Assembly (NCBI GenBank): GCA_043819075.1
Contig: JBDRFE010000016.1
Location: 1-13,895 of the forward strand
Source of the DNA: an archaeon
GTDB taxonomy: Archaea; Iainarchaeota; Iainarchaeia; Iainarchaeales; 1-14-0-10-31-34
DNA length: 13,895 nucleotides
Direction of reading: 5' to 3'
This document shows positions 2 through 13,895 of the stretch, in pieces. The notes under the pieces were generated by a model. That model saw only the letters and a list, made by a program, of their open reading frames with translations, did no database searches and was not told the DNA's origin. Position 1 is the stretch's first letter. Each line of letters starts with the position of its first letter. The translations under genes and the position numbers were made by a program.

Positions 2-3000
2 CGAATTTTTGTTTCACTAAGAAACCAAAAAAACAGTAATTGTAATGTTTCAGGAGTAAATAATTGTTCAACGCCTATTCAAACAATAGATGACTTAAAT
101 AATGTTATTTCAACTCCTCTGTATTTAAGCTATTCAGTAAAAGATTGGCAGAACCTTGACTATAATTTTGAGGTAGGCGAAACTCCTGTTAGATTAAGGT
201 TTAAAGCTTTAGCTGATGGGTGGTCTAGTTCAACTGCAATAAATGATATTTGGGTTGACAATATTCGGGTAACTGAGTTAGATGGTTCCCCTGTAAAAGG
301 CTATTTGATGATTGTTTCTCCTTTAACAAACCAGTCATTCAAACAAAGAGATTCAATGATTGTTGTATTAAAATTGTTGGATGCAAATGCAAACCAGTTT
401 GAGGGGCCAACTCAAGCAGAATACAAGCTAAAGGATTCTGATTCATGGCAACAAATTCAATTAACTAAAAACTATCAAAAAGAATACTACTTTTTTGTAA
501 CTGCACCAAACGAAATAGGAGACCATAACTTGAGTGTAAGAGTCTTTATGAACGGAGGATGGGTAGAAGAACAAACAACCTACAAAGTTTATGCAATAGA
601 CCTTGACTTGAAAATCAACTTCATCAAAGCAATTCAGGTAATTGAAGATGTTGATTTGGTTGCAGGAAAAGCTACTGCAGTGAAAGTTGGAGTGAACAAC
701 ACAAATGATTTAAATGAAAAAAAGTGGGTTAAGCTTACTTTAAGTTTCAATGGAATAGATAAAAATCAGACTAAAAAATTTGTTGGTGACTACAACTTCA
801 TTTTCTATGTTGATAATCCTTACGAAGAAGCAGGAGATTATACAATAACAGCAGAAATAGATCCTAACAAAATATTTGATGAAAGTGATGAAAATAATAA
901 TTATGAAAACACAGATGTTGCAGTAAAAAATGTTAAAACTTTGGTTTTAATTTTCACTCCTGTTGAAAAAGATGTATATGGACATTACACATATAACAAA
1001 GATTTGTTTCTTGGCAATTATTACATAAATAACTTTGATACTTACTATGAAGATATAATAAATCTAAAAGATTTTTTGTATTCAACATATCCTTTAGATG
1101 AAGTTATAGTAATTCCAAAGTTTAGTGTGTACTGTTTAGAAGCATCTTGCCCAATACATGATGATTACAATGCCGATCACTTACACCTATATCTAGAAGG
1201 GATCAGGAAAGAGCAAGAACTTGCTGGAGGTATTTTGGAATTTTTGAATTTTGAATACAGAGTAGTAGGCATACTGCCAGAAAACTGGTTTAGTGATAGA
1301 GTGCCCCCCTTTAGTAAAAGTGGCGGAGTAACAGATCGGGGAAAATCCGTATTGGGAGAGTATCCGCACACTGTAGTTTTAGCACATGAAGTAGGACACA
1401 CAGTAAAATATAATGGGCTACATTTGTGTGAAGAATATTGGGACAACAACATTCACGAAAAAAACTGTGCTAATCCGACTCCAATAGATTCTAACAGCAC
1501 ATATTGTGTTGACTTAAATTATGCTCCCGGGACATTTTTAGGAAATGTTGTTAAAAATGGAATATGGGTGGAAAAAGGTCCTGAAGAAGAAGAGTTTTAT
1601 AGTGTTGACGAAGGCCTTTGTAACCTTAATAACACTTTTTCTTTTATGGGACGAGCAAAATATTTGCCGCCTAGGAGATGGGCAACTTACGATGAATATC
1701 AACATATATTTTCTGCTTTTGAAACAACTGGTCAAACATACTCATATAGTTCTGGTGAAGACATTTTGTTGTTAAGCGGTTTAATTGAAGTGAATTTAAA
1801 TGTAGCTTTAGATGAGGCTTATGTTATTAAGGGGCAGGAATTTGGTTATTCAGATGGAAATTGTGCAATAAGGACAATTGATGTAAACGGTCAAAACATA
1901 GGAGACTATAATTTTGCTGTTTCGTTTATTATTCAGACAAACCCTCCGACAGAATCAAATTACTCTTCATTCCTTTTAGGTGTTCCTTTCTCTGAAGACA
2001 TTAATTCTGTTCAGGTTATTTGTAACGGTGAATTAAAGGCTGAGAGGTTTGTTTCAGCTAATGCTCCGAGCGTGTCTTTTGTTTCTCCTTCAGGCGGAGA
2101 ACAGTGGACTGGAGATAATTTGATTGAATGGACTGCAAGCGATTTAGATGGAGATGACTTGGAATACGTATTACAATATTCAGATGACAATGGTTCAACA
2201 TGGAATCCATTAGGAATGCATGTTACCGACACAAATTTTACTTTTGATGTAGGCATGGTTGACGGAAACACTTCATACAAAATCAAAGTAATTGCAACAG
2301 ACGGAGTATTAACAGGAGAAGCTATATCAAACACTTTCACAATATTGAATCCAAACATAGAAATTGAACCGTCAAGAGAAATAGATTTAGAAACAATAAA
2401 TAATTTGCAGAATGTTGTAAAAGACTTTAATATAGTGAACACAGGCAACGCAGACTTAAACGTATTTGACATGAATTACTCAGACAACCTGAATGTAACA
2501 GGATTAACTCTGCCAATTATATTACAGCCAGGAGAAAGTCATTCTTTTAGCGTTACCTTGAATGTTTTGGGCATGAACTTGGGTTCTTTTGAAGAAGACA
2601 TTAACTTGGCTTCAAACGACCCAAACCAGATAATAAAGAGAGTAAAGATTTATGGGGAAATAGAGCAAGCAAAACCAGATTTCAGGGTAACAGCAGAAAA
2701 CATTTCTTTTAATCCAGTTTACCCTGATGAGAATGGGAATGTCACAGTAAGTGCTTTGATTGAAAATTTAGGGGACTTGAATGCAAGCAATGTTAGTGTA
2801 AGTTTTTATGCACTTGACAAAAATACTGTTGCTTTGTATAAAGCTGATTCAAATTCTGGAACAATTTTAATTGATGAAACCGGAAACCATAATGGCTCTT
2901 TTAAGGCATTAGGAGAGCCTGCCTGGACTGAAAACTCAAGATTTGGTGTTTCTGCTTTAAGATTTGATGGAACAAATGATTATATTAGTGTTCCTGATAA

Positions 3001-4870
3001 CAGCGAATTAGATTTAGTGAATGAATTGAGTGTTGAGTTATGGTTTTATTTTGATGATTCTACAGCTTGGCAGGGATTGATTGCTAAGAGAAACCAGGAA
3101 ACTGATAGTACAACTAATTTTGGATTGAATACTAATGGAACAGCAATGCAGTGGTATTTTAGGGAAACTGGGGCTGGAGCTTGGGATATTTTATCTTTTA
3201 GCGCTCCATCAAGGTATGCTTGGCATCATTTTATGGGAACCTTCAGACAAGTTAATCCTACAACTGTTGAAGCGAAAGTTTATGTTGATGGAAACCTGCA
3301 GGCTAACACAAATTTAACTGGAAATTTAAGTAATACGGTTAATTCTCATGATTTAATTATTGGTTCAAGTGCTATTAACGTAGAACCCTTTGATGGCTTG
3401 ATTGATGAAATTAGAATCAGCAATAAAATAGGAGAACCCTTTGAGTTTACTGCTGAAAAAATTATTCCATTCATTGACGCTAATTCAAGTGCATTGGTCT
3501 CAGCTGATTGGAATTCTATTCCAGTTGGAACCCAAAAAGTGTATGTTTCAGTTGATCAAGACAATTTAATTGACGAAAGAAATGAAACAAACAATTACGA
3601 TTATAATTCTATTACAGTTTATTCAGAGCCAATGCTTTCAGGAGAATTTGGCTTTAATCCAGTGAATGATTTTGAAGAACAATTTGACTTGAATATTACC
3701 ATAGAAAATCTTGGAGCAAAATTACTGAACGCAAATGCAGAATTAATTTTACCAGAAGGATTAACTATAACAGATTCTTTGACTAAAAGCATTGGAACCC
3801 TAAACTCACATGAAACAGTTACAGTGAACTGGAATGACATTAACGCAGGAGAACAAGGACTAAAAGAAATAATAGTTAATATAAAGGGAACAAATGCTGA
3901 TGAAAACTTTTCAGCAATAACTTTGGTTAGAAGAATTGAAGTGCAAGACTTAAACGTAGTTCAAACGCTTTACCCTGATGACACAAATTTAGCTGAGTTT
4001 GAAGTAAAAAACTTTAATTCAGATATAACTTATGACGGACTATATTACAGGATAAGCATTTCTGGCCCGGAAAACTATTCAACAGACCAGAATACAGGAG
4101 TGTTATATGCAGGGCAGACAAAATCTTTTTCTTTTGACTGGAATGCATGGAAACAAACAGGAAATTACACTCTAACAGTTTCATTATACGATTATTTTGA
4201 TGAATTAGTTGACCAGAAACAAGATGTATTTGAAGTTATTCCGTACAAAGCTACAATGCTTTTATATTATTCAACTGATGGATTAGACTTTAATTCAGAG
4301 TTCAGTTCTTATGCAGACTATTTTTCTAGTGCAGTAAATGAAAGCAATGAATTAATGACAGTTTATTCTTATGACGGAGACTTAAATTATGCTATAAGGA
4401 ATCCGGAGACAATGCAGTGGACAACACAATACCTTGGAATAGGAAACTATCCTTATTTGGTTGCAGACGGAAGTGATTTCCAATTGGTTTACGTTGATTC
4501 AGGAGTAAAATACAGGAAGTATTCTGGTTCTTGGAGTTCAGCTGAACTGGTTTCAAATAAAACTTCAGTTGACCCTGTCTTGACAGCTGACGGAAGCAGG
4601 TTAATTGTCTTGTTTTCCTCTGACACAAACTCAAACAAAAATATTTTCTTAACAGGCTTTAATGGAACAACATGGGAAAACGAAATGGAGTTAACACACT
4701 GCAGGACAGCAAACTGTGTTAATCCAGTTGTATTAGATGAAGGTTTGGTTGAAGGAAAAATAGCTTATGCTTACAGAAAGTTTACAGGAGAAGAGTATGA
4801 GTCATTGGATTCAAATTTAATGAGTTCTTTGTTTGACGTGAATTACTTTTATTGGAGTGAAGTGCAATGA
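2..4870 (+). CDS. Giant multidomain surface/secreted protein with putative metzincin-like (M66/StcE-like) zinc metalloprotease, CARDB, Ig-like, ASH/choice-of-anchor-D-like, LamG and partial beta-propeller domains; 5'-truncated by the window edge
   Basis: The frame is open from nt 2 (RIFVSLRNQK...IWVDNIRVTELDGSPVKGY) straight into the ORF called at 305, so the true start is upstream of the window. Motifs: CARDB-like YTITAEIDPNKIFDESDENNN; HEVGH at 1385-1399 with a candidate Met-turn SFMG at 1640-1651; Ig-like APSVSFVSPSGGE..IEWTASDLDGD..YSDDNGSTW; ASH-like FNIVNTGNADLNV..LQPGESHSFSV..SNDP; LamG ALRFDGTNDYI..WHHF..YVDG..FDGLIDEIRI. No C-terminal hydrophobic anchor. Confidence 0.85.
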   Translation, partial: RIFVSLRNQKNSNCNVSGVNNCSTPIQTIDDLNNVISTPLYLSYSVKDWQNLDYNFEVGETPVRLRFKALADGWSSSTAINDIWVDNIRVTELDGSPVKGYLMIVSPLTNQSFKQRDSMIVVLKLLDANANQFEGPTQAEYKLKDSDSWQQIQLTKNYQKEYYFFVTAPNEIGDHNLSVRVFMNGGWVEEQTTYKVYAIDLDLKINFIKAIQVIEDVDLVAGKATAVKVGVNNTNDLNEKKWVKLTLSFNGIDKNQTKKFVGDYNFIFYVDNPYEEAGDYTITAEIDPNKIFDESDENNNYENTDVAVKNVKTLVLIFTPVEKDVYGHYTYNKDLFLGNYYINNFDTYYEDIINLKDFLYSTYPLDEVIVIPKFSVYCLEASCPIHDDYNADHLHLYLEGIRKEQELAGGILEFLNFEYRVVGILPENWFSDRVPPFSKSGGVTDRGKSVLGEYPHTVVLAHEVGHTVKYNGLHLCEEYWDNNIHEKNCANPTPIDSNSTYCVDLNYAPGTFLGNVVKNGIWVEKGPEEEEFYSVDEGLCNLNNTFSFMGRAKYLPPRRWATYDEYQHIFSAFETTGQTYSYSSGEDILLLSGLIEVNLNVALDEAYVIKGQEFGYSDGNCAIRTIDVNGQNIGDYNFAVSFIIQTNPPTESNYSSFLLGVPFSEDINSVQVICNGELKAERFVSANAPSVSFVSPSGGEQWTGDNLIEWTASDLDGDDLEYVLQYSDDNGSTWNPLGMHVTDTNFTFDVGMVDGNTSYKIKVIATDGVLTGEAISNTFTILNPNIEIEPSREIDLETINNLQNVVKDFNIVNTGNADLNVFDMNYSDNLNVTGLTLPIILQPGESHSFSVTLNVLGMNLGSFEEDINLASNDPNQIIKRVKIYGEIEQAKPDFRVTAENISFNPVYPDENGNVTVSALIENLGDLNASNVSVSFYALDKNTVALYKADSNSGTILIDETGNHNGSFKALGEPAWTENSRFGVSALRFDGTNDYISVPDNSELDLVNELSVELWFYFDDSTAWQGLIAKRNQETDSTTNFGLNTNGTAMQWYFRETGAGAWDILSFSAPSRYAWHHFMGTFRQVNPTTVEAKVYVDGNLQANTNLTGNLSNTVNSHDLIIGSSAINVEPFDGLIDEIRISNKIGEPFEFTAEKIIPFIDANSSALVSADWNSIPVGTQKVYVSVDQDNLIDERNETNNYDYNSITVYSEPMLSGEFGFNPVNDFEEQFDLNITIENLGAKLLNANAELILPEGLTITDSLTKSIGTLNSHETVTVNWNDINAGEQGLKEIIVNIKGTNADENFSAITLVRRIEVQDLNVVQTLYPDDTNLAEFEVKNFNSDITYDGLYYRISISGPENYSTDQNTGVLYAGQTKSFSFDWNAWKQTGNYTLTVSLYDYFDELVDQKQDVFEVIPYKATMLLYYSTDGLDFNSEFSSYADYFSSAVNESNELMTVYSYDGDLNYAIRNPETMQWTTQYLGIGNYPYLVADGSDFQLVYVDSGVKYRKYSGSWSSAELVSNKTSVDPVLTADGSRLIVLFSSDTNSNKNIFLTGFNGTTWENEMELTHCRTANCVNPVVLDEGLVEGKIAYAYRKFTGEEYESLDSNLMSSLFDVNYFYWSEVQ

Positions 4871-6102
4871 AAAAATTGTTAATGGTTTTATTGATTGTGT
4901 TGCTTTTGGGGTTGAGTTTTGGTGACCAGCCGCCTCCAGAAGAAACAATCAAAGACCAGGGTACTGGTTATGAAGACCCTTATTTAAGCGTTTTTTTTGA
5001 TGACCAGAAAGCAGACGGTTATTTTTTTGGATTAGATGAAAATATTATTGTTAATGGGAGAACTAAATGCAATGAATCTAGTTGTGGTGCTGCAAGCTCT
5101 TTTATTCAGTGGTGTGAAGGAATTTCCTGCAACAACTGGCAGAATGCTGGAACAACAGGAAAAATTAGTTTAGTTGCAGGAACAAACCCTGATGTAAACT
5201 CAAACTTGCTGGTAGGAAAATCTTATGACTTGAACTGGACAATAAAAATAACAGAACAAGGCATTTATGAAATAAGAATATTAGCTGATGCAGCTTATAC
5301 TGCCCCAACAGCCACATATCCAACTGCAAGAACCATTTACAATGGTTATTCAACAAAAACAACCCTAATAGACAATAATGTTTTCTGGCAAGACTTTGAC
5401 GCAAACCTGCATTTAACCTGCATTGATGTTAATGCAACAGACTGCAATGCCAGTTATTATAAAATAGATGTTAATCCAAAAAAAGACGTGAATTTTGGAG
5501 ACCTGAATCTATATAATGAAAGCATTTTAGTTTCACAAGACGGAAACATTGGAGTGAAGTATTATTCGGTTGATGCAAACAATAATGCAGAACCAGCAAA
5601 AACAGCTTTTGTTTTAATAGACAAAACAACTCATTCTTTGTTGACACAAAACTTTTTGCCAAACCCATCCAATGCAGCAAAAAATTTTATTCGATTATTT
5701 GATGGAAATTATGGTTTAAGCTATTGCTATAATTCTGGTTCAAATTTAGGTGACGCTTATTTTAGGAAGTCTTCTGATGCATTAAACTGGAATTCTCCTG
5801 TGCAGATTAATTCTGATGCAGGTTCTTGCAGTGGAAATTATAGTGAAACAGGACAAACTCCTTTCAGGACAGGCGAAGGAGGCATTACCTTAACCTCAAA
5901 CTCATTAAACGACTTAATCTTTTTATTCACCGAATGGAACTCAACTAAAGCCTGGACAAAAATCCTGCACTCAAGCGGAGCATGGGAAAACACTACTTTA
6001 ATCAGCGATTCAACCGGAAACAACCCAAACAAAGACACAGTAAATGTTGTAACTGATTCAAACAACGCAATCCATTATATTTTAACCAGCAAAAGCAAAT
6101 GA
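4867..6102 (+). CDS. Secreted protein (signal peptide, Ig-like/OmpL47-type beta module, C-terminal BNR/propeller-like repeats)
   Basis: Signal peptide MKKLLMVLLIVLLLGLSFG; ATGA overlap with the upstream stop; Ig-like motif LTCxD...YYKID...DGNIGVKYYSVDANNNAE..IDKT; Asp-box-like YFRKSSDALNW. Confidence 0.75.
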   Translation: MKKLLMVLLIVLLLGLSFGDQPPPEETIKDQGTGYEDPYLSVFFDDQKADGYFFGLDENIIVNGRTKCNESSCGAASSFIQWCEGISCNNWQNAGTTGKISLVAGTNPDVNSNLLVGKSYDLNWTIKITEQGIYEIRILADAAYTAPTATYPTARTIYNGYSTKTTLIDNNVFWQDFDANLHLTCIDVNATDCNASYYKIDVNPKKDVNFGDLNLYNESILVSQDGNIGVKYYSVDANNNAEPAKTAFVLIDKTTHSLLTQNFLPNPSNAAKNFIRLFDGNYGLSYCYNSGSNLGDAYFRKSSDALNWNSPVQINSDAGSCSGNYSETGQTPFRTGEGGITLTSNSLNDLIFLFTEWNSTKAWTKILHSSGAWENTTLISDSTGNNPNKDTVNVVTDSNNAIHYILTSKSK

Positions 6103-6209
6103 ATTAAAAAACAAAACAACTAATTAAATAAAGAAACAACAAAAATCCGTTAAACAGGAAAAAACAAACAAATTAAAAAAACTCTAAAACAAAAATTAAT
6201 TTGATTTTT

Positions 6210-6731
6210 ATGGACTTAAAAGAAAAAATCAGAAGCATTCCAGATTTTCCAAAAAAAGGAATAATGTTCAGGGACATTACAACACTGCTTCAGGACCCGC
6301 AGGCAACAAAAAAAGCAATTAAAGGAATGCTTAAGCCGTTTGAAAAAGAAAAAATTGACGTAGTTGTAGGAACAGAATCAAGAGGCTTTATTTTTGGGGC
6401 AATCATGGCATGGGAATTAAATGCGGCTTTTGTTCCGGTAAGAAAACCCGGAAAACTTCCATTCAAAACAAAAAAAGCTTCATACACAAAAGAATACGGT
6501 TCAGATGAACTGGAAATTCATTCAGATGCAATAAAAAAAGGCGACAAAGTATTAATTGCAGACGATTTATTGGCTACATCGGGGACTGCTGTTGCAGTAA
6601 AAGAATTAGTTGAAGGATTAGGCGGAAAAATAATCGGCTTCTGTTTTTTAATTGAATTAAGCTTCTTAAAAGGAAGAGAAAAACTGAAACCATACAAAAT
6701 TTTTTCATTAATAGATTATGCTTCGGAGTGA
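6210..6731 (+). CDS. apt: Adenine phosphoribosyltransferase
   Basis: IRSIPDFPKKGIMFRDIT, ESRGFIFG, RKPGKLP, EYG and the PRPP loop LIADDLLATSGT. ATG 6210 (MDLKEKIR) fits the family N-terminus better than TTG 6201. Confidence 0.96.
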   Translation: MDLKEKIRSIPDFPKKGIMFRDITTLLQDPQATKKAIKGMLKPFEKEKIDVVVGTESRGFIFGAIMAWELNAAFVPVRKPGKLPFKTKKASYTKEYGSDELEIHSDAIKKGDKVLIADDLLATSGTAVAVKELVEGLGGKIIGFCFLIELSFLKGREKLKPYKIFSLIDYASE

Positions 6732-6737
6732 AAAAAA

Positions 6738-7511
6738 ATGATTGGATTAATCGGCGGCTCAGGATTTGAAAACCCTTCTTTATTCAAATTAGAAGAAGAA
6801 AAAGAAATTAAAACAGAATTCGGAAAGCCTTCAGGAAAAATAAAAATCGGAACAATTGCAGGAAAAAAAGTTGCATTCATTTCAAGGCACGGAGAAAAAC
6901 ACACAATAAACCCTACTAACGTAAACTACAGAGCAAACATAATGGCTTTAAAAAAACTTGGGGTAAAAAAAATTATTGCTTCTTCTGCGGTTGGCTCACT
7001 AAAAGAAGAATTCAAGCCAGGAGAATTTGCTTTTGTAAACCAGTTCATTGACAGGACAACAAAAAGAACACAGACTTTTTACGACAAAAAACAGGTCTGC
7101 CATATTTCTGTTGCAGAACCATTCTGCAGTGATTTAAGGGAAAAGCTTATCCAGTCTGCAAAAGAACTGAATTTAGAATTCCACGAAAAAGCAACCTGTG
7201 TTGTAATTGAAGGCCCAAGGTTTTCAACTAAAGCAGAAAGCAATTTATTCAGGTCATGGAACGCTGATTTAATCGGAATGACTTTAGTGCCAGAAGCAGT
7301 TTTAGCAAGAGAAGCAGAAATCTGTTATGCAACAATTGCAATGATAACAGACTATGATGTCTGGAAAGAAAAGCCAGTTGACGTTGAAACTGTTTTAAAA
7401 AGAATGAAAGAAAATTCCAAGAAACTGCAAGACTTAATAAAAAAAACAATTCCATTAATAGATGAAAAAGATTGTGAATGCAATTCAGCTTTAAAGAATG
7501 CATTAATTTAA
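6738..7511 (+). CDS. mtnP: S-methyl-5'-thioadenosine phosphorylase (MTAP / purine nucleoside phosphorylase family 2)
   Basis: GLIGGSG, SRHG, VNYRANI, SAVGSL, QFIDRT, EGPRFSTKAES, IGMT, LAREAE, TDYD. RBS-like GGAGTGA at 6725-6731. Confidence 0.93.
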   Translation: MIGLIGGSGFENPSLFKLEEEKEIKTEFGKPSGKIKIGTIAGKKVAFISRHGEKHTINPTNVNYRANIMALKKLGVKKIIASSAVGSLKEEFKPGEFAFVNQFIDRTTKRTQTFYDKKQVCHISVAEPFCSDLREKLIQSAKELNLEFHEKATCVVIEGPRFSTKAESNLFRSWNADLIGMTLVPEAVLAREAEICYATIAMITDYDVWKEKPVDVETVLKRMKENSKKLQDLIKKTIPLIDEKDCECNSALKNALI

Positions 7512-8274: not shown

Positions 8275-9165
8275 TTACATTGCATCCAATGCCTTGATTC
8301 TGTCATCTATTGGAGGATGAGTGTTAAACATTCCCTTAAACCAGCTTTTATGTTTTTCTTTGAATGGATTAGAAATATACAAATTTTCTGTTGCCTCATT
8401 CGCAACCTCTAATGGCTCAACATCAGCTTTAATTTTTCTTAAAGCATCTGCCAGGCCTTTAGGGTAACGGGTAAGCAATGCGCCGTCTGCGTCAGCCAAA
8501 AACTCTCTTTTCCTTGAAATAGCAAACTGGATTAACTGGGCAATAATTGGCGTCAGGATTGCAAGAATTAAGCCAAAAACAATGAAAGCAACCTGAATTC
8601 CTCCGGAACCTCTTCTGTTTCCTGTTCCTCCCCACAAAAAGCTTCTCAAAATAATATTGCTTAACAACGCGGTTGTTCCCACTAAAACTGTTACTAACAT
8701 CATAAACCTTATGTCAAAGTTTTTTATATGAGACATTTCGTGTGCAATAACTCCCTCTAATTCTAATCTGTTCAGCCTTTGAACTGCTCCTTTGGTTACA
8801 ACAATCACTGCATGCTGGGGGTCTCTTCCAGTGGCAAAAGCATTAATTGCTGTATCGTCAATCAAAAACAGTTTTGGCTTTGGAATTCCAGCCGCAATAG
8901 CCAATCCTTCAACTGAATTATACAAATGAGGAAACTCTTTTTCGTTTACAGGTTTTGCTTTTGATACTGCCAAAACAAATGAATCACTTTTATAATAAGA
9001 TAAAAGCATTAAAGCCATGGCAATAAAAAATGCCATAAAAATTCCAAAATAGCCTAACCCCATTATTTCAGAAAAAACCCAGCCAAGAAATAAGTTAAAT
9101 AAAAAAAAGCCTGCAAACAATAGAATTGAATTCCTTTTGTTTGCGGCAATCCTGTCATAAATCAT
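8275..9165 (-). CDS. htpX: M48 family membrane zinc metalloprotease HtpX
   Basis: NAFATGRDP, ELEGVIAHEMSHIKNFD, ISRKREFLADA, THPP..RIKAL, four hydrophobic segments; downstream of lemA. Confidence 0.95.
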   Translation of the reverse strand: MIYDRIAANKRNSILLFAGFFLFNLFLGWVFSEIMGLGYFGIFMAFFIAMALMLLSYYKSDSFVLAVSKAKPVNEKEFPHLYNSVEGLAIAAGIPKPKLFLIDDTAINAFATGRDPQHAVIVVTKGAVQRLNRLELEGVIAHEMSHIKNFDIRFMMLVTVLVGTTALLSNIILRSFLWGGTGNRRGSGGIQVAFIVFGLILAILTPIIAQLIQFAISRKREFLADADGALLTRYPKGLADALRKIKADVEPLEVANEATENLYISNPFKEKHKSWFKGMFNTHPPIDDRIKALDAM

Positions 9166-9180
9166 TGCATCACTTTAAAG

Positions 9181-9732
9181 TCAGAAGCTGACTTTTGGCG
9201 CGGTTCTGGCAGCTTCCTCTACTTCAAAGAATTCTTTTGCAGTAAAACCAAACATTCCTGCAATTAAATTATTGGGGAAAGTCTGCATTGAATTATTGAA
9301 TTCCAAAACAGAGTCGTTGTAAAACTGTCTTGCATAAGCAATCTTTGACTCAATTCCATCCAATTGTTCCTGCAATAACTTAAAGTTTTCGTTTGCTTTA
9401 AGCTGAGGATAAGCTTCTGCCACAGCAAACAAAGATTTTAATGCTCCTGTCAGCATGTTTTCTGCCTGGGCTTTTGCATTCAAATTGCTTCCTGCACCCA
9501 TTGCAGCACTCCTGGCTTTTGTAACGTTTTCAAACACTTCTCTTTCGTGTTTTGCATAGCCTTTAACTGTTTCCACTAAATTAGGCACTAAATCAATTCT
9601 TTTTTTGAGCTGGACGTCAATCTGGCTCCAAGAATTGTTTACCCTGTTCCTTTTGACAATCAAGCCATTGTAGACTATGATAAAGAAAAAAATTATCAAC
9701 ACTAATACTATTGGTATAATCCATTCAATCAT
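9181..9732 (-). CDS. lemA: LemA family protein
   Basis: N-terminal TM helix, [59 protein letters not shown]. Start moved to ATG 9732, supported by RBS GGAGGT at 9741-9746 (minus). Confidence 0.96.
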
Positions 9733-9740
9733 AAAAAAAG

Positions 9741-9746
9741 ACCTCC
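9741..9746 (-). promoter_or_regulatory. Ribosome-binding site GGAGGT for lemA
   Basis: acctcc on the plus strand, 8 nt upstream of ATG 9732. Confidence 0.75.
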
Positions 9747-9873
9747 GATAGAAAAAATGGAATGAAATAAAATAAAAAGGGAATTGTTGAAAAAAAACTG
9801 CAAAAAAGAAAAAATCGGCTTTAAGCAAAAAAAAACATTCAAATAAAAGCTTTTTTTTTGATAATTGAATGAA

Positions 9874-11463
9874 ATGGAAAAAGAGCTGACTTTAAGAGCA
9901 ATACTAATTGGCTCAGTTTTAGCAGTAATAATTACAATGTATTCTGCTTTTGCTGGATTAAAAATCGGCGGAGTTTACTGGCCGATAACAACAGCCTCAA
10001 TAATGGCTTTAGGAATTCTCACAATTTTAGGCAACACAAACAAAAACGAAGTAAATGTAACACAAACCATTGCTTCTGCAGGAGGATTGCTTGCAGCAGG
10101 AATAATTTTTACTGTCCCAGCGCTGTATATTGCGGGCTTTGAAATTTCTTTAACCGAAATAACAATTATTTCTTTGGTTGGAGGAATAACCGGAGTGATT
10201 TTTTCTGTTCCGTTAAGAAAGCAGATGATTGAAAAAGAAAAATTAGAGTTTGCAGACGGAAAAGCCGCTGCAGCAATAATTGAAGCAGGAGACGAGAAAG
10301 GAACAAAAATTAAAACCCTGACAGCAATGTTTGGAATTGGAGTATTATTTTCTTTTTTAAGAGACTACCTGAAATTAATTCCTTCTTTCTGGAACATTGA
10401 CTTAATTAAAACAGAGTTATCAAAACTGTTTTCTTTTGGCTCAAGCATTTCCTTGATTCCTTTTTCAGGAGGCTATTTAATTGGCCCAAAGTTTACTGGA
10501 ATATGGTTTTTGGGGGCAGTGATTTCATATCTTGTGTTGATTCCATTTGTTGTGGCAAACAATTTTTTTTCAGACAAGTTTACTGCAGGAATTGAATTAA
10601 CAAAGCCCTTAGGAATTGGAATAGTAATTGGTGCAGCAGTAATGTATTTTTTGCTGAAAGGAATTCCTGCATTAAAAAACATTTTATCCGACTGGAAAGA
10701 ATCATTCAAAGAAAACCAGAAAATAATCGGGTTAATGCTGATTGTTTTGGTTGCTACACTTACAATAATAACTGAAATGAATTTAGTGCTGGCAATTACA
10801 GCAATTTTTGGAGCATTTGCAATGGCTTACATTGGAGGAAGAGTTACAGGAGAAATAAATGTTGACCCAATGGAATTGTTTGCATTAATTGTATTGATTG
10901 CGGCAAAAATTTTGTTCGGATTCAACGCAGTTTTTTTGGTTATCATTGCAGCAGTTGTATGCATTTCAGCTGGAATAGCAGGAGACACTTTACAGGACTT
11001 AAAAACAGGTTTTTTGCTTGGAACAAAACCAAAAAACCAGTTTATTGCACAATTAATCGGAGTTGTTGTTGGAGCATTAGTCATTGGTTTTGTGTTAATT
11101 GCATTGCAAAACTCTTATGGTTTTGGAGGAACAGAGCTTCCCGCGCCCCAGGCAATGGCTTTAAGCGAAATAATCAAATCAGATTCTCTTTCAGGAAACT
11201 TGTTGCTTGGAATTTTAATCGGAGGAATTCTGGCTTTACTTGTTTCTTTTTTTGAGTCAGCAATAATTGTTGTGGCTTTTGGAATAGGAGTTTATGTGCC
11301 AATTGAATTAAGCTTTCCTTTATTCGTTGGAGGAATGATAAGGTTTTATGCTGACAGAAAAAAGTGGACAGAAAAAGGAAGATTAATTGCAGCAGGATTA
11401 ATTGCAGGTGAAGGCTTTACAGGAGTAGTTTTGGCACTGCTTGGATTAGGAAAACTGGTATAA
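9874..11463 (+). CDS. OPT family oligopeptide transporter
   Basis: [70 protein letters not shown]; many TM helices. Start is ATG 9874 or TTG 9865. Confidence 0.92.
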
Positions 11464-11867: not shown

Positions 11868-12212
11868 TCAACTTAGTATTTCTATCTCAATTCTTTTTTT
11901 TGTTATTGGAATAAGCCTTAAAATGCCCTGATAGTGAAGTTCACTGAATTTTGCTATTTCAGGGGGGATTCTAACTACCAAAGAATTCCCTGACTTTGTA
12001 ACTGTTATTTTTCTATCCAAAGCGAACAGTTTTTTCTCTTTAACTTCTTTTTCCACTTCAGCCATTACCTCATCATCCAAATACTCTGCATTACATTTAG
12101 TGCAGACTTCACATTCTCTTACGCCAAAATCTATTCCAAAAAACTCCACTTCACAGTGGCTTTTCTTTAATCTCCCACCGCATCTGCACTTATAAGACAA
12201 TATTTTATCCAT
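11868..12212 (-). CDS. Putative antitoxin: YgiT/MqsA-type zinc ribbon fused to a C-terminal AbrB/MazE DNA-binding domain
   Basis: KCRCGG...EVCTKCNAEYLD (Zn ribbon), then RKITVTKSGNSLVVRIPPEIA (AbrB/MazE/SpoVT signature). Confidence 0.8.
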   Translation of the reverse strand: MDKILSYKCRCGGRLKKSHCEVEFFGIDFGVRECEVCTKCNAEYLDDEVMAEVEKEVKEKKLFALDRKITVTKSGNSLVVRIPPEIAKFSELHYQGILRLIPITKKRIEIEILS

Positions 12213-12217
12213 TCAAG

Positions 12218-12457
12218 TCACCATGTTTTAACCGTAACAGGAAAAATCTTCCTAATTTTTTGCTTTGAATAAACATATTCATCATAAACAACAGAATAAA
12301 AACCAAACAAAGATTCCATTAATCTCGTTTTCTTTTGCTTTCTTTTCTGCCCTTTCAAAATAGCCTCTTTTACCTCTTCTCTGGAAATTCCCCTTAACCA
12401 CATTCTCTCAATCATATGTTTTGTTCTTTTATGTTCCCAGTTAATCTTCAGTTCCAT
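12218..12457 (-). CDS. Putative DUF4258/RelE-like ribonuclease toxin
   Basis: TKHMIERMWLRGISREEVKEAILKG...VVY...VTV matches the DUF4258 pattern (sxHAxxRMxxRxIsxxeV); small, basic, 5 nt upstream of the zinc-finger gene. Confidence 0.72.
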   Translation of the reverse strand: MELKINWEHKRTKHMIERMWLRGISREEVKEAILKGQKRKQKKTRLMESLFGFYSVVYDEYVYSKQKIRKIFPVTVKTW

Positions 12458-13227: not shown

Positions 13228-13895
13228 TTGAACAAAAAAATTGTTTTGCCTTTGCTATTAATAATGATAATTTCAGCTGCTTCAGCTGCAATAACAGTTA
13301 ATGTTACAGCACCAAATTCTTCAACAAAAATAAATTCAACAACAACTTCTTTTAACACAAATTTTACCGTCAGCTATGACGGAAACCTGTCTTTAGCTTC
13401 AAACATTTATCTTGACAATGATACAAACAATTCATCTTTCCTTCAGACACTTGCAACAGGAACAGCCACATTAAACGGAGCAAACACTTTTTCATGGAAT
13501 ACTTCTACTCTAACAGACGGAACATATTATATTTTTGTTAGGACAACAGACTCAAACCAGACAGCAGGCAATTACTCTGCAGGATTTCTGGTTGACAAAA
13601 CAATTCCTTCTGCAGTAACAGACCTAAATGCAACAGCAGGAAACATGCAGATAAATTTAATCTGGACTGCTTCAGCAAGCACTGATGTAAACCAACACAA
13701 TATTTACAGGAGCACAACAAATGGATTCACCCCTTCAGCAGCAAACTTTTTAAGGGCAGTTACAGCAACAAATTTCACTGACTCAAATGTTGTTTTTGGG
13801 ACAACATATTATTACATTTTAAAGGCAATGGATTCTGCCGGAAATTTATCAAATAATTCAAGTCAGGTTTATTCCAGTGCACTGGATTCAACTGC
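13228..13895 (+). CDS. Secreted surface glycoprotein-like protein with Ig-like and fibronectin type III domains; 3'-truncated by the window edge (absent from the ORF track)
   Basis: TTG 13228 follows a G8 RBS-like run at 13213-13220. The frame is open to the edge: MNKKIVLPLLLIMIISAASA (signal peptide), AITVNVTAPNSS..FSWNTSTLTDGTYYIFV (Ig-like), DKTIPSAVTDLNATAGNMQINLIWTAS..HNIYRS..FTDSNV..TYYYILKAMDSAGNLS (FN3). Confidence 0.88.
   Translation, partial: MNKKIVLPLLLIMIISAASAAITVNVTAPNSSTKINSTTTSFNTNFTVSYDGNLSLASNIYLDNDTNNSSFLQTLATGTATLNGANTFSWNTSTLTDGTYYIFVRTTDSNQTAGNYSAGFLVDKTIPSAVTDLNATAGNMQINLIWTASASTDVNQHNIYRSTTNGFTPSAANFLRAVTATNFTDSNVVFGTTYYYILKAMDSAGNLSNNSSQVYSSALDST

Follow-up and report, generated by a model that had tools for sequence, protein, structure and literature searches.

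D-x-N sites in exported proteins of the Iainarchaeota and a candidate change of sequon recognition by AglB

The window analyzed here is a stretch of 13,895 nucleotides, contig JBDRFE010000016.1 (C16) of assembly GCA_043819075.1, from a member of the Iainarchaeota (Diapherotrites) with a genome of 1.24 Mb (34.6% GC, 90.6% complete; hereafter G000). Its extracellular proteins raise the question of why aspartate is so often followed two residues later by asparagine. The initial annotation offered two answers, a modifying enzyme such as an oligosaccharyltransferase (OST) that reads D-x-N, or a secretome-wide bias towards Ca2+ binding or Asx turns. The excess is real, extends over the phylum, and is confined to proteins that are exported and to homologues from this lineage. 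Glycosylation is inferred from sequence patterns; we put at about 0.65 the probability that D-x-N sites are glycosylated by the OST AglB, with Ser or Thr two residues after the Asn (+2) preferred but optional.

The D-x-N excess in exported proteins

The largest carrier is a secreted surface protein, first described as a 1521-residue open reading frame. The hand count for that frame, 43 D-x-N among 112 Asp, is exact (10.9 expected; reached in none of 1000 shuffles), while its extent had to be revised: the frame runs off the contig at its 5' end and covers positions 2..4870 (+ strand), giving 1622 residues and 45 sites in the window, 11 of them with Ser/Thr at +2. A paralogue on contig C54 has a signal peptide upstream. 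The protein comprises a CARDB domain, an HExxH zinc-peptidase-like motif, HYDIN/ASH-like Ig domains, a LamG domain and a second CARDB domain. LamG (residues 941-1150; 2822..3451, +) is the sole stretch without an excess, with 2 D-x-N against 1.4 expected; this domain varies among close homologues, in which it is swapped or, as in P0008, missing, and thus acts as an exchangeable cassette. The adjoining gene encodes a 411-residue signal-peptide protein (4867..6102, +) that belongs to no Pfam family and for which a search of the ESM Atlas gave a top score of 0.77 and no lead. Its count was also exact, at 14 D-x-N for 29 Asp (3.2 expected; none of 1000 shuffles). The two genes (window 2-6181) have paralogous copies on C10, C29 and C54 at 85-92% DNA identity. 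At the other end of the window lies a 3'-truncated secreted Ig/FN3 protein (13228..13893, +), which continues into contig C52 through an identical 141-base overlap. Here the count of 6 sites for 11 Asp was again right (1.3 expected; reached in 1 of 1000 shuffles); four of the sites have Ser/Thr at +2, and the protein has 16 N-x-S/T. For the 1521-residue frame and the 411-residue protein, none of E-x-N, D-N, D-xx-N and N-x-D exceeds expectation.

The initial annotation had taken two cytoplasmic neighbors as controls, an Apt-like phosphoribosyltransferase (6210..6731, +) and an MtnP/PNP-family phosphorylase (6738..7511, +). Both are indeed free of D-x-N, and with 0.1 and 0.5 sites expected they carry no information; the useful control is the 816 cytoplasmic proteins of the genome. 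Gene calls (1235 genes in G000) and the hydrophobicity-based split into secreted and cytoplasmic proteins were made with our own heuristics rather than with Prodigal or SignalP. Among 150 secreted proteins, after removal of 4 near-duplicate paralogues, D-x-N ranks first of 2000 residue pairs, with 344 observed and 188.7 expected (1.82-fold, z 11.3). It is flat in the cytoplasmic proteins (436 versus 462.7, 0.94-fold; 0.83- to 1.08-fold in slices of other genomes), and the 228 membrane proteins have 152 against 140.3. Related spacings in the secreted set stay close to or below expectation (E-x-N 1.06-fold, D-xx-N 0.94-fold, N-x-D 0.92-fold, D-x-D 0.80-fold). The excess survives composition-matched shuffling, and persists at 1.75-fold when residues are shuffled locally within 20 positions and at 1.72-fold when beta-strand parity is kept, which rules out local composition and strand periodicity as its cause.

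A repeat or signal at the DNA level was also considered and rejected. An elevated coding pattern is confined to the sense strand of secreted genes, read in frame (22.8 versus 6.4 per 10 kb), and the preference for GAC at D-x-N sites is the same in cytoplasmic genes. As a separate observation, the choice of Asp codon is tied to the codon two positions on: GAC is used in approximately 55-67% of cases when the second base of that codon is A (D, E, H, K, N, Q, Y) and in approximately 30-50% otherwise. The dependence was seen genome-wide in G000 and in the slice of G003, with the residue-by-residue table made for G000, and it is alike in cytoplasmic and secreted genes, which suggests DNA-level avoidance.

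The bias is present in exported proteins and is not uniform among them: where at least one site is expected, 23 of 62 secreted proteins and 8 of 124 cytoplasmic proteins reach at least twofold, and removing the top 20 of the 150 secreted proteins lowers the ratio to 1.05-fold. In G000 the excess sits in S-layer proteins, pilin-like proteins (25 versus 6.4), lipoproteins and large adhesins. That the motif recurs across unrelated folds, as first proposed, was borne out; sites lie in unrelated folds, in pilins and in linkers, and 120 different columns of the S-layer alignment carry one.

Range in the phylum and selection on the sites

S-layer orthologues from 45 genomes contain 487 D-x-N against 209.5 expected (2.32-fold), 38 of the 45 lying above 1.5-fold, while N-x-S/T stands at 1.07-fold. 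A set of 52 database S-layer homologues, which may overlap the 45, gave 598 against 234.2. Five more genomes were sampled as slices, selected independently of the motif, and their secreted proteins showed ratios of 1.93 (G003), 2.54 (G075), 1.57 (G052), 1.45 (G010) and 0.92 (G006); G001, G014, G062 and G111 were represented by a few loci each. Thirty CARDB loci had 163 sites against 101.0, very unevenly spread. Since the genomes are related, the pooled statistics overstate independence. Beside these counts, the slices of G006 (L133-L152) show fewer D-x-N-x-S/T than expected in cytoplasmic proteins (11 versus 23.4) and more than expected in secreted ones.

All seven close homologues of the large window protein carry the excess (3.5- to 4.0-fold). 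Its 45 distant homologues, bacterial where named, have 349 sites against 358.1 (0.97-fold), and 118 distant FN3 homologues of the protein at 13228 have 388 against 346.3 (1.12-fold). With no excess in these 163 proteins of the same folds from other taxa, the motif follows the lineage and not the fold. The comparison outside the phylum consists of these distant homologues, as distinct from the secretomes of other archaea; a search for S-layer homologues aimed at outgroup archaea returned only this lineage's type, and one contig scan gave one locus.

The composition of the sites shows what is favored around the Asn. The secreted proteins of G000 contain 86 D-x-N-x-S/T against 27.1 expected (3.18-fold), 240 D-x-N followed at +2 by another residue against 153.8 (1.56-fold), and 535 N-x-S/T without Asp against 500.8 (1.07-fold). 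In five of six genomes the full motif is the top class per site (1.7- to 3.9-fold), and in five of six the class without Ser/Thr is enriched as well; N-x-S/T without Asp ranges from 0.98- to 1.15-fold in the six, so that the enrichment expected of a canonical sequon was not found. We pooled 394 proteins with 1439 D-x-N sites, leaving out the family-f5 genomes G006, G062 and G097. Two residues before Asn, Asp is enriched 2.04-fold and Glu 1.03-fold. Ser/Thr occupies +2 at 372 of the 1439 sites, above a background of 16.3%, and 74% of sites are without it. Residues disfavored at +2 are Lys (0.6-fold), Glu, Arg and Pro, and those disfavored at +1 are Pro (0.9-fold), Glu and Asp, whereas Pro in the x position (-1) is not clearly excluded (1.7-fold). 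Asn followed by Pro is without an excess of preceding Asp in three Iainarchaeota sets (0.97-, 1.01- and 1.15-fold), an effect missing in the distant controls.

Retention was measured among eight S-layer proteins of family f1, the family of G000. Asn within D-x-N is kept in 597 of 737 comparisons (81%), compared with 47% for other Asn and 56% for the Asn of N-x-S/T without Asp; the Asp is kept in 83% versus 63% for other Asp, and x in only 34%. Ser/Thr at +2 is kept in 54 of 120 cases (45%), against 49% for any Ser/Thr, and Glu replaces the Asp in 2 of 109. Asp and Asn co-occur 1.6-fold above the expectation for independent columns, the highest of 19 pairs (the others 1.02-1.40, with kinship inflating all). 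In the 411-residue protein all 14 sites are kept in two paralogues (83-88% identity) while x or +2 change, and at one site of this family the +2 Thr becomes Ala or Val in paralogues with Asp and Asn retained. Across many families there are S-layer columns that carry D-x-N (for example in 13 of 31, 15 of 30 and 18 of 30 sequences), mostly with a +2 residue other than Ser/Thr. Purifying selection thus acts on the Asp and the Asn, and not on x or +2.

AglB as the candidate reader

Which enzyme could read such a site? G000 has one full-length STT3-family gene, aglB (G000:C3:31630-33597; PF02516 and PF22627 above cut-off), in a cluster of genes that look like glycosyltransferases as judged from their N-terminal sequences, and within the phylum an STT3 match was obtained for 134 of 151 genomes. 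The predicted structure (pLDDT 89) matched STT3, AglB and PglB in Foldseek with E values of 2.6e-20 to 9.2e-15, and a HMMER comparison also matched PglB (E 6.6e-7). Among the catalytic acids (EL1 Asp, DXD/E and TIXE Glu) and the metal-site Arg, Asp42, Arg154 and Glu303 are invariant in 34 of 34 aligned AglBs and E161 is nearly so; Lys314 is likewise invariant in the 34. A FastTree phylogeny of 149 full-length AglBs separated a clade of 102 members, including all 42 genome-derived sequences, from an outgroup of 47, with a support of 0.56 for the split. D163 is present in 79 of the 102. The initial annotation had suggested looking in AglB for a basic residue equivalent to the PglB Arg and for an altered WWD/DK pocket; a basic residue that aligns with this Arg is present, and the pocket is eroded in part of the clade. 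Lys314, which alignment places at this position, occurs in 96 of the 102 clade members and in 42 of the 42 genome-derived AglBs. All 47 outgroup sequences have an intact WWD, compared with 63 of the 102 in the clade (Asn in 17, Ser in 11, Gly in 5, others in 6), with 18 parsimony changes of state, and the DK Lys column holds Lys in 38 of 47 and 37 of 102, respectively. The C-terminal domains of the AglBs themselves have 26 D-x-N against 23.7 in the outgroup and 39 against 49.5 in the ingroup; as the ingroup is also without an excess, they are uninformative as an archaeal control. Prediction of an AglB-peptide complex scored 0.01 and counts neither way.

Three side observations concern this family. 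P0109, P0113, P0122, P0123, P0129 and P0138 are long-branch members of the clade that have no Lys and a degenerate TIXE motif, and could be second paralogues of other specificity. A group comprising P0153, P0162 and L227:9989-12085, one of them labeled Hydrothermarchaeaceae, has its Lys at exactly Glu+12 and a Gln instead of the DK Lys; in its one locus the one secreted neighbor has 5 D-x-N against 1.4, a possible convergence. Finally, the column of residue 622 of the L001 AglB carries N-x-S/T in 38 of 42 genome-derived AglBs, possibly a canonical site or a structural Asn.

Known enzymes provide the frame for a mechanism. In C. lari PglB, E319 and R331 are 12 residues apart, R331 binds the acid at -2, and yeast has D362 in its place (PMC7226087). 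Ser/Thr is bound in a pocket made up of WWD and DK/MI, and the exclusion of Pro, an OST hallmark, is explained by the TIXE motif (PMC8342417); clones of C. jejuni PglB with D459V, and one with D459N-S492C, had no activity (PMC3527161). By analogy, an exported protein would be held as an extended peptide along the TIXE-type motif of AglB, and this would account for the intolerance of Pro at +1. Asp42 and Glu303 with the metal would activate the Asn, as in other OSTs, and Lys314 would form a salt bridge with the -2 Asp as Arg331 of Campylobacter PglB does. Given this grip, the +2 hydroxyl would add affinity without being required; the Ser/Thr pocket would become dispensable and so could have decayed many times, and surface proteins would gain sites through Asp and Asn alone. 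The working consensus would be D-x-N-(not Pro)-(Ser/Thr best; hydrophobic residues, Gly and Asn accepted; Lys, Glu, Arg and Pro poor). We lean slightly towards the broader proposal that recognition shifted from the +2 hydroxyl to the -2 aspartate throughout the phylum, a third sequon rule with no need for Ser/Thr, in which a PglB-like basic residue would have been gained convergently and WWD/DK then lost repeatedly.

Such an enzyme would share with Campylobacter PglB (D/E-x-N-x-S/T; C. lari R331, PDB 3RCE/5OGL) the fold, the favored -2 acid and a conserved basic residue approximately 12 positions past the catalytic Glu of EL5. It would differ in being archaeal, in having Lys rather than Arg, in accepting Asp only and not Glu, in the absence of Ser/Thr from the majority of pooled sites, and in that WWD and DK/MI are not conserved and Pro at -1 is not clearly excluded. 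With the canonical AglB and STT3 (N-x-S/T; A. fulgidus AglB 7E9S, yeast Stt3) it has in common the Pfam STT3 and AglB core domains, the catalytic Asp, Glu and Arg, a TIXE-type motif, depletion of Pro at +1, and S-layer and pilin substrates; unlike them, it belongs to a lineage that shows hardly any enrichment of N-x-S/T lacking Asp. There is precedent for glycosylation of an Asn with no hydroxyl at +2, at rare N-x-C/V/A/G sites (PMC13738210) and at the Asn-2 site of the H. salinarum S-layer protein, which tolerates Ser to Val, Leu or Asn (PMC2952790). Those are isolated exceptions, whereas the form without Ser/Thr would here be the majority, across the proteome and the phylum, with a determinant of its own. 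The Desulfovibrio PglBs provide natural examples of single-subunit OSTs whose sequon rules have shifted (PMC4894442, PMC12229607); they relax -2, while the Iainarchaeota AglB would tighten -2 and relax +2. PMC2952790 states that Archaea were not found to have the bacterial extended motif. A term search of PMC11407970 did not find the word "sequon", and no paper on the D-x-N signal or on the specificity of Iainarchaeota AglB was found in a search that left most subscription journals outside its reach.

Several observations weigh against a D-x-N-reading AglB. G006, of family f5, keeps the Lys and has no overall excess (120 versus 130.2), with D-x-N-x-S/T at 34 against 19.7 (1.73-fold) and the other D-x-N at 74 against 99.9 (0.74-fold); it may be a subgroup that follows a strict rule. 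The S-layers of G006, G062, G111, G007, G009, G017 and G102 are also low, and many large CARDB proteins of the phylum are without an excess. Two homologues that NCBI labels Micrarchaeota carry it (P0002, 3.75-fold; P0257, 10 versus 4.3), which may reflect mislabeling or a wider range. The equivalence of Lys314 to PglB Arg331 is one of alignment: Lys or Arg occupies the column in 9 of 47 outgroup AglBs, the column lies at the catalytic Glu+12 in 32 of those 47 and at Glu+11 in the clade, and HMMER set Lys314 three residues before the Asp of human STT3A, a different register. In G000, AglB retains WWD, with Glu in place of the Tyr of WWDYG, as well as a DK-like Lys, although the majority of the excess D-x-N in this genome do not have Ser/Thr. 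A predicted link between loss of WWD and the +2 residue failed, the Ser/Thr preference being 1.33-fold in 8 genomes that have lost it and 1.28-fold in 17 that have kept it (1.68-fold in G000, 1.85-fold in 4 family-f5 genomes; 19 genomes had no AglB class). D-x-N-P is low in cytoplasmic proteins of G000 too (0.51-fold), so the Pro effect is supporting and not decisive; under local shuffles D-x-N-P stands at 9 against 5.8. Lastly, the Desulfovibrio PglBs retain the Arg and ignore the -2 rule (PMC4894442, PMC12229607).

It is unlikely, though the least so of the alternatives, that the enzyme follows a strict Campylobacter-like D-x-N-x-S/T rule and that the other D-x-N either are remnants of sites since decayed or are retained for reasons of local structure. 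The lead of the full motif in five of six genomes fits such a rule, G006 fits it exactly, and so do the WWD Asp and DK-like Lys of G000 and a loss of WWD untied to the +2 preference. Yet the larger part of the G000 excess comes from sites without Ser/Thr, a Ser/Thr at +2 is kept no better than any other, in contrast to Asp and Asn, and the S-layer columns and the paralogues with Ala or Val at +2 retain the pair without a hydroxyl; the repeated decay of WWD/DK would also go unexplained. We consider it improbable that another modifier of exported proteins is responsible, either a further GT-C glycosyltransferase or an enzyme that hydroxylates, cross-links or lipidates Asn or Asp. G000 has several additional GT-C-like membrane proteins, two of them STT3-like, the excess is uneven among proteins, and the tolerance of Ser loss in H. 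salinarum is unexplained (PMC2952790). Close matches to the 469-residue STT3-like paralogue were found in 13 of 52 genomes, however, and to three others in 8, 2 and 10 of 40; none of these queries, which did not include the genes on C39 and C13, matched in G075, G010 and G036, which have the excess, and the same holds for family f7. Their patchy distribution led us to reject these paralogues as a universal reader. In G000, 90.6% complete as noted, neither a GT41 N-glycosyltransferase (PF13844, HMW1C-like; the GT41 control matched 2 of 14) nor PMT was matched, and the search for Asp/Asn hydroxylases ran without a positive control. The preference for Ser/Thr at +2 and the depletion of Pro at +1 fit an OST. 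The two short STT3-like membrane proteins, of 469 and 480 residues (L214:733-2139 and L229:60-1499, both on the - strand), are themselves patchy in the phylum, and the former has a degenerate WWD-like motif.

Equally improbable in our estimate is that nothing is modified and that D-x-N reflects a structural or calcium-binding preference, in Asx turns or Dx[DN]xDG-like loops. Some sites are invariant in domain cores, D-P-N among them, D-P-N is also raised 2.0-fold in the control set from outside the Iainarchaeota, and conserved sites in paralogous families inflate the counts. In the calcium-binding loop motif Dx[DN]xDG, Asp and Asn are interchangeable at position 3 and Asp-Gly follows; here D-x-D is depleted and Asp at +2 is not favored (15 versus 20). 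The same folds elsewhere have no excess, and the sites are spread over unrelated folds, pilins, linkers and S-layer columns as described above. A low-confidence model (mean pLDDT 59) places the 19 sites of its better-predicted blocks in strands (9) and loops (10) alike, and a structural bias would leave the changes in AglB unaccounted for. The Ca2+/Asx-turn bias of the initial annotation is thus disfavored, a few sites such as the D-P-N of CARDB and ASH-like domains being probably structural, and the shuffles, the cytoplasmic proteins, the distant homologues and the AglB changes favor its other option, an OST that reads D-x-N.

Remaining genes of the window and implications

Positions 8275-11463 contain ordinary genes, for LemA paired with an HtpX-like M48 peptidase and for a transporter of the OPT family. 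At 11868-12415 (-) a weak MazE/AbrB-like match lies beside a 65-residue open reading frame, which could make a toxin-antitoxin pair.

Most likely the D-x-N signal represents a sequon rule that is new within an already known family of enzymes. For OSTs, Asn-x-Ser/Thr is regarded as universal, and archaea are described as having no minus-two rule; a D-x-N reader, if true, would overturn both. It would permit a direct test of whether the +2 hydroxyl serves catalysis or only binding, and would give glyco-engineering single-subunit enzymes whose sequon is orthogonal. A single enzyme and a panel of peptides would suffice for an inexpensive test of the hypothesis. Were it true, sequon predictors would miss most glycosites in the phylum, and the finding would bear on the coats of these ultra-small archaea and on how they meet their hosts and viruses.

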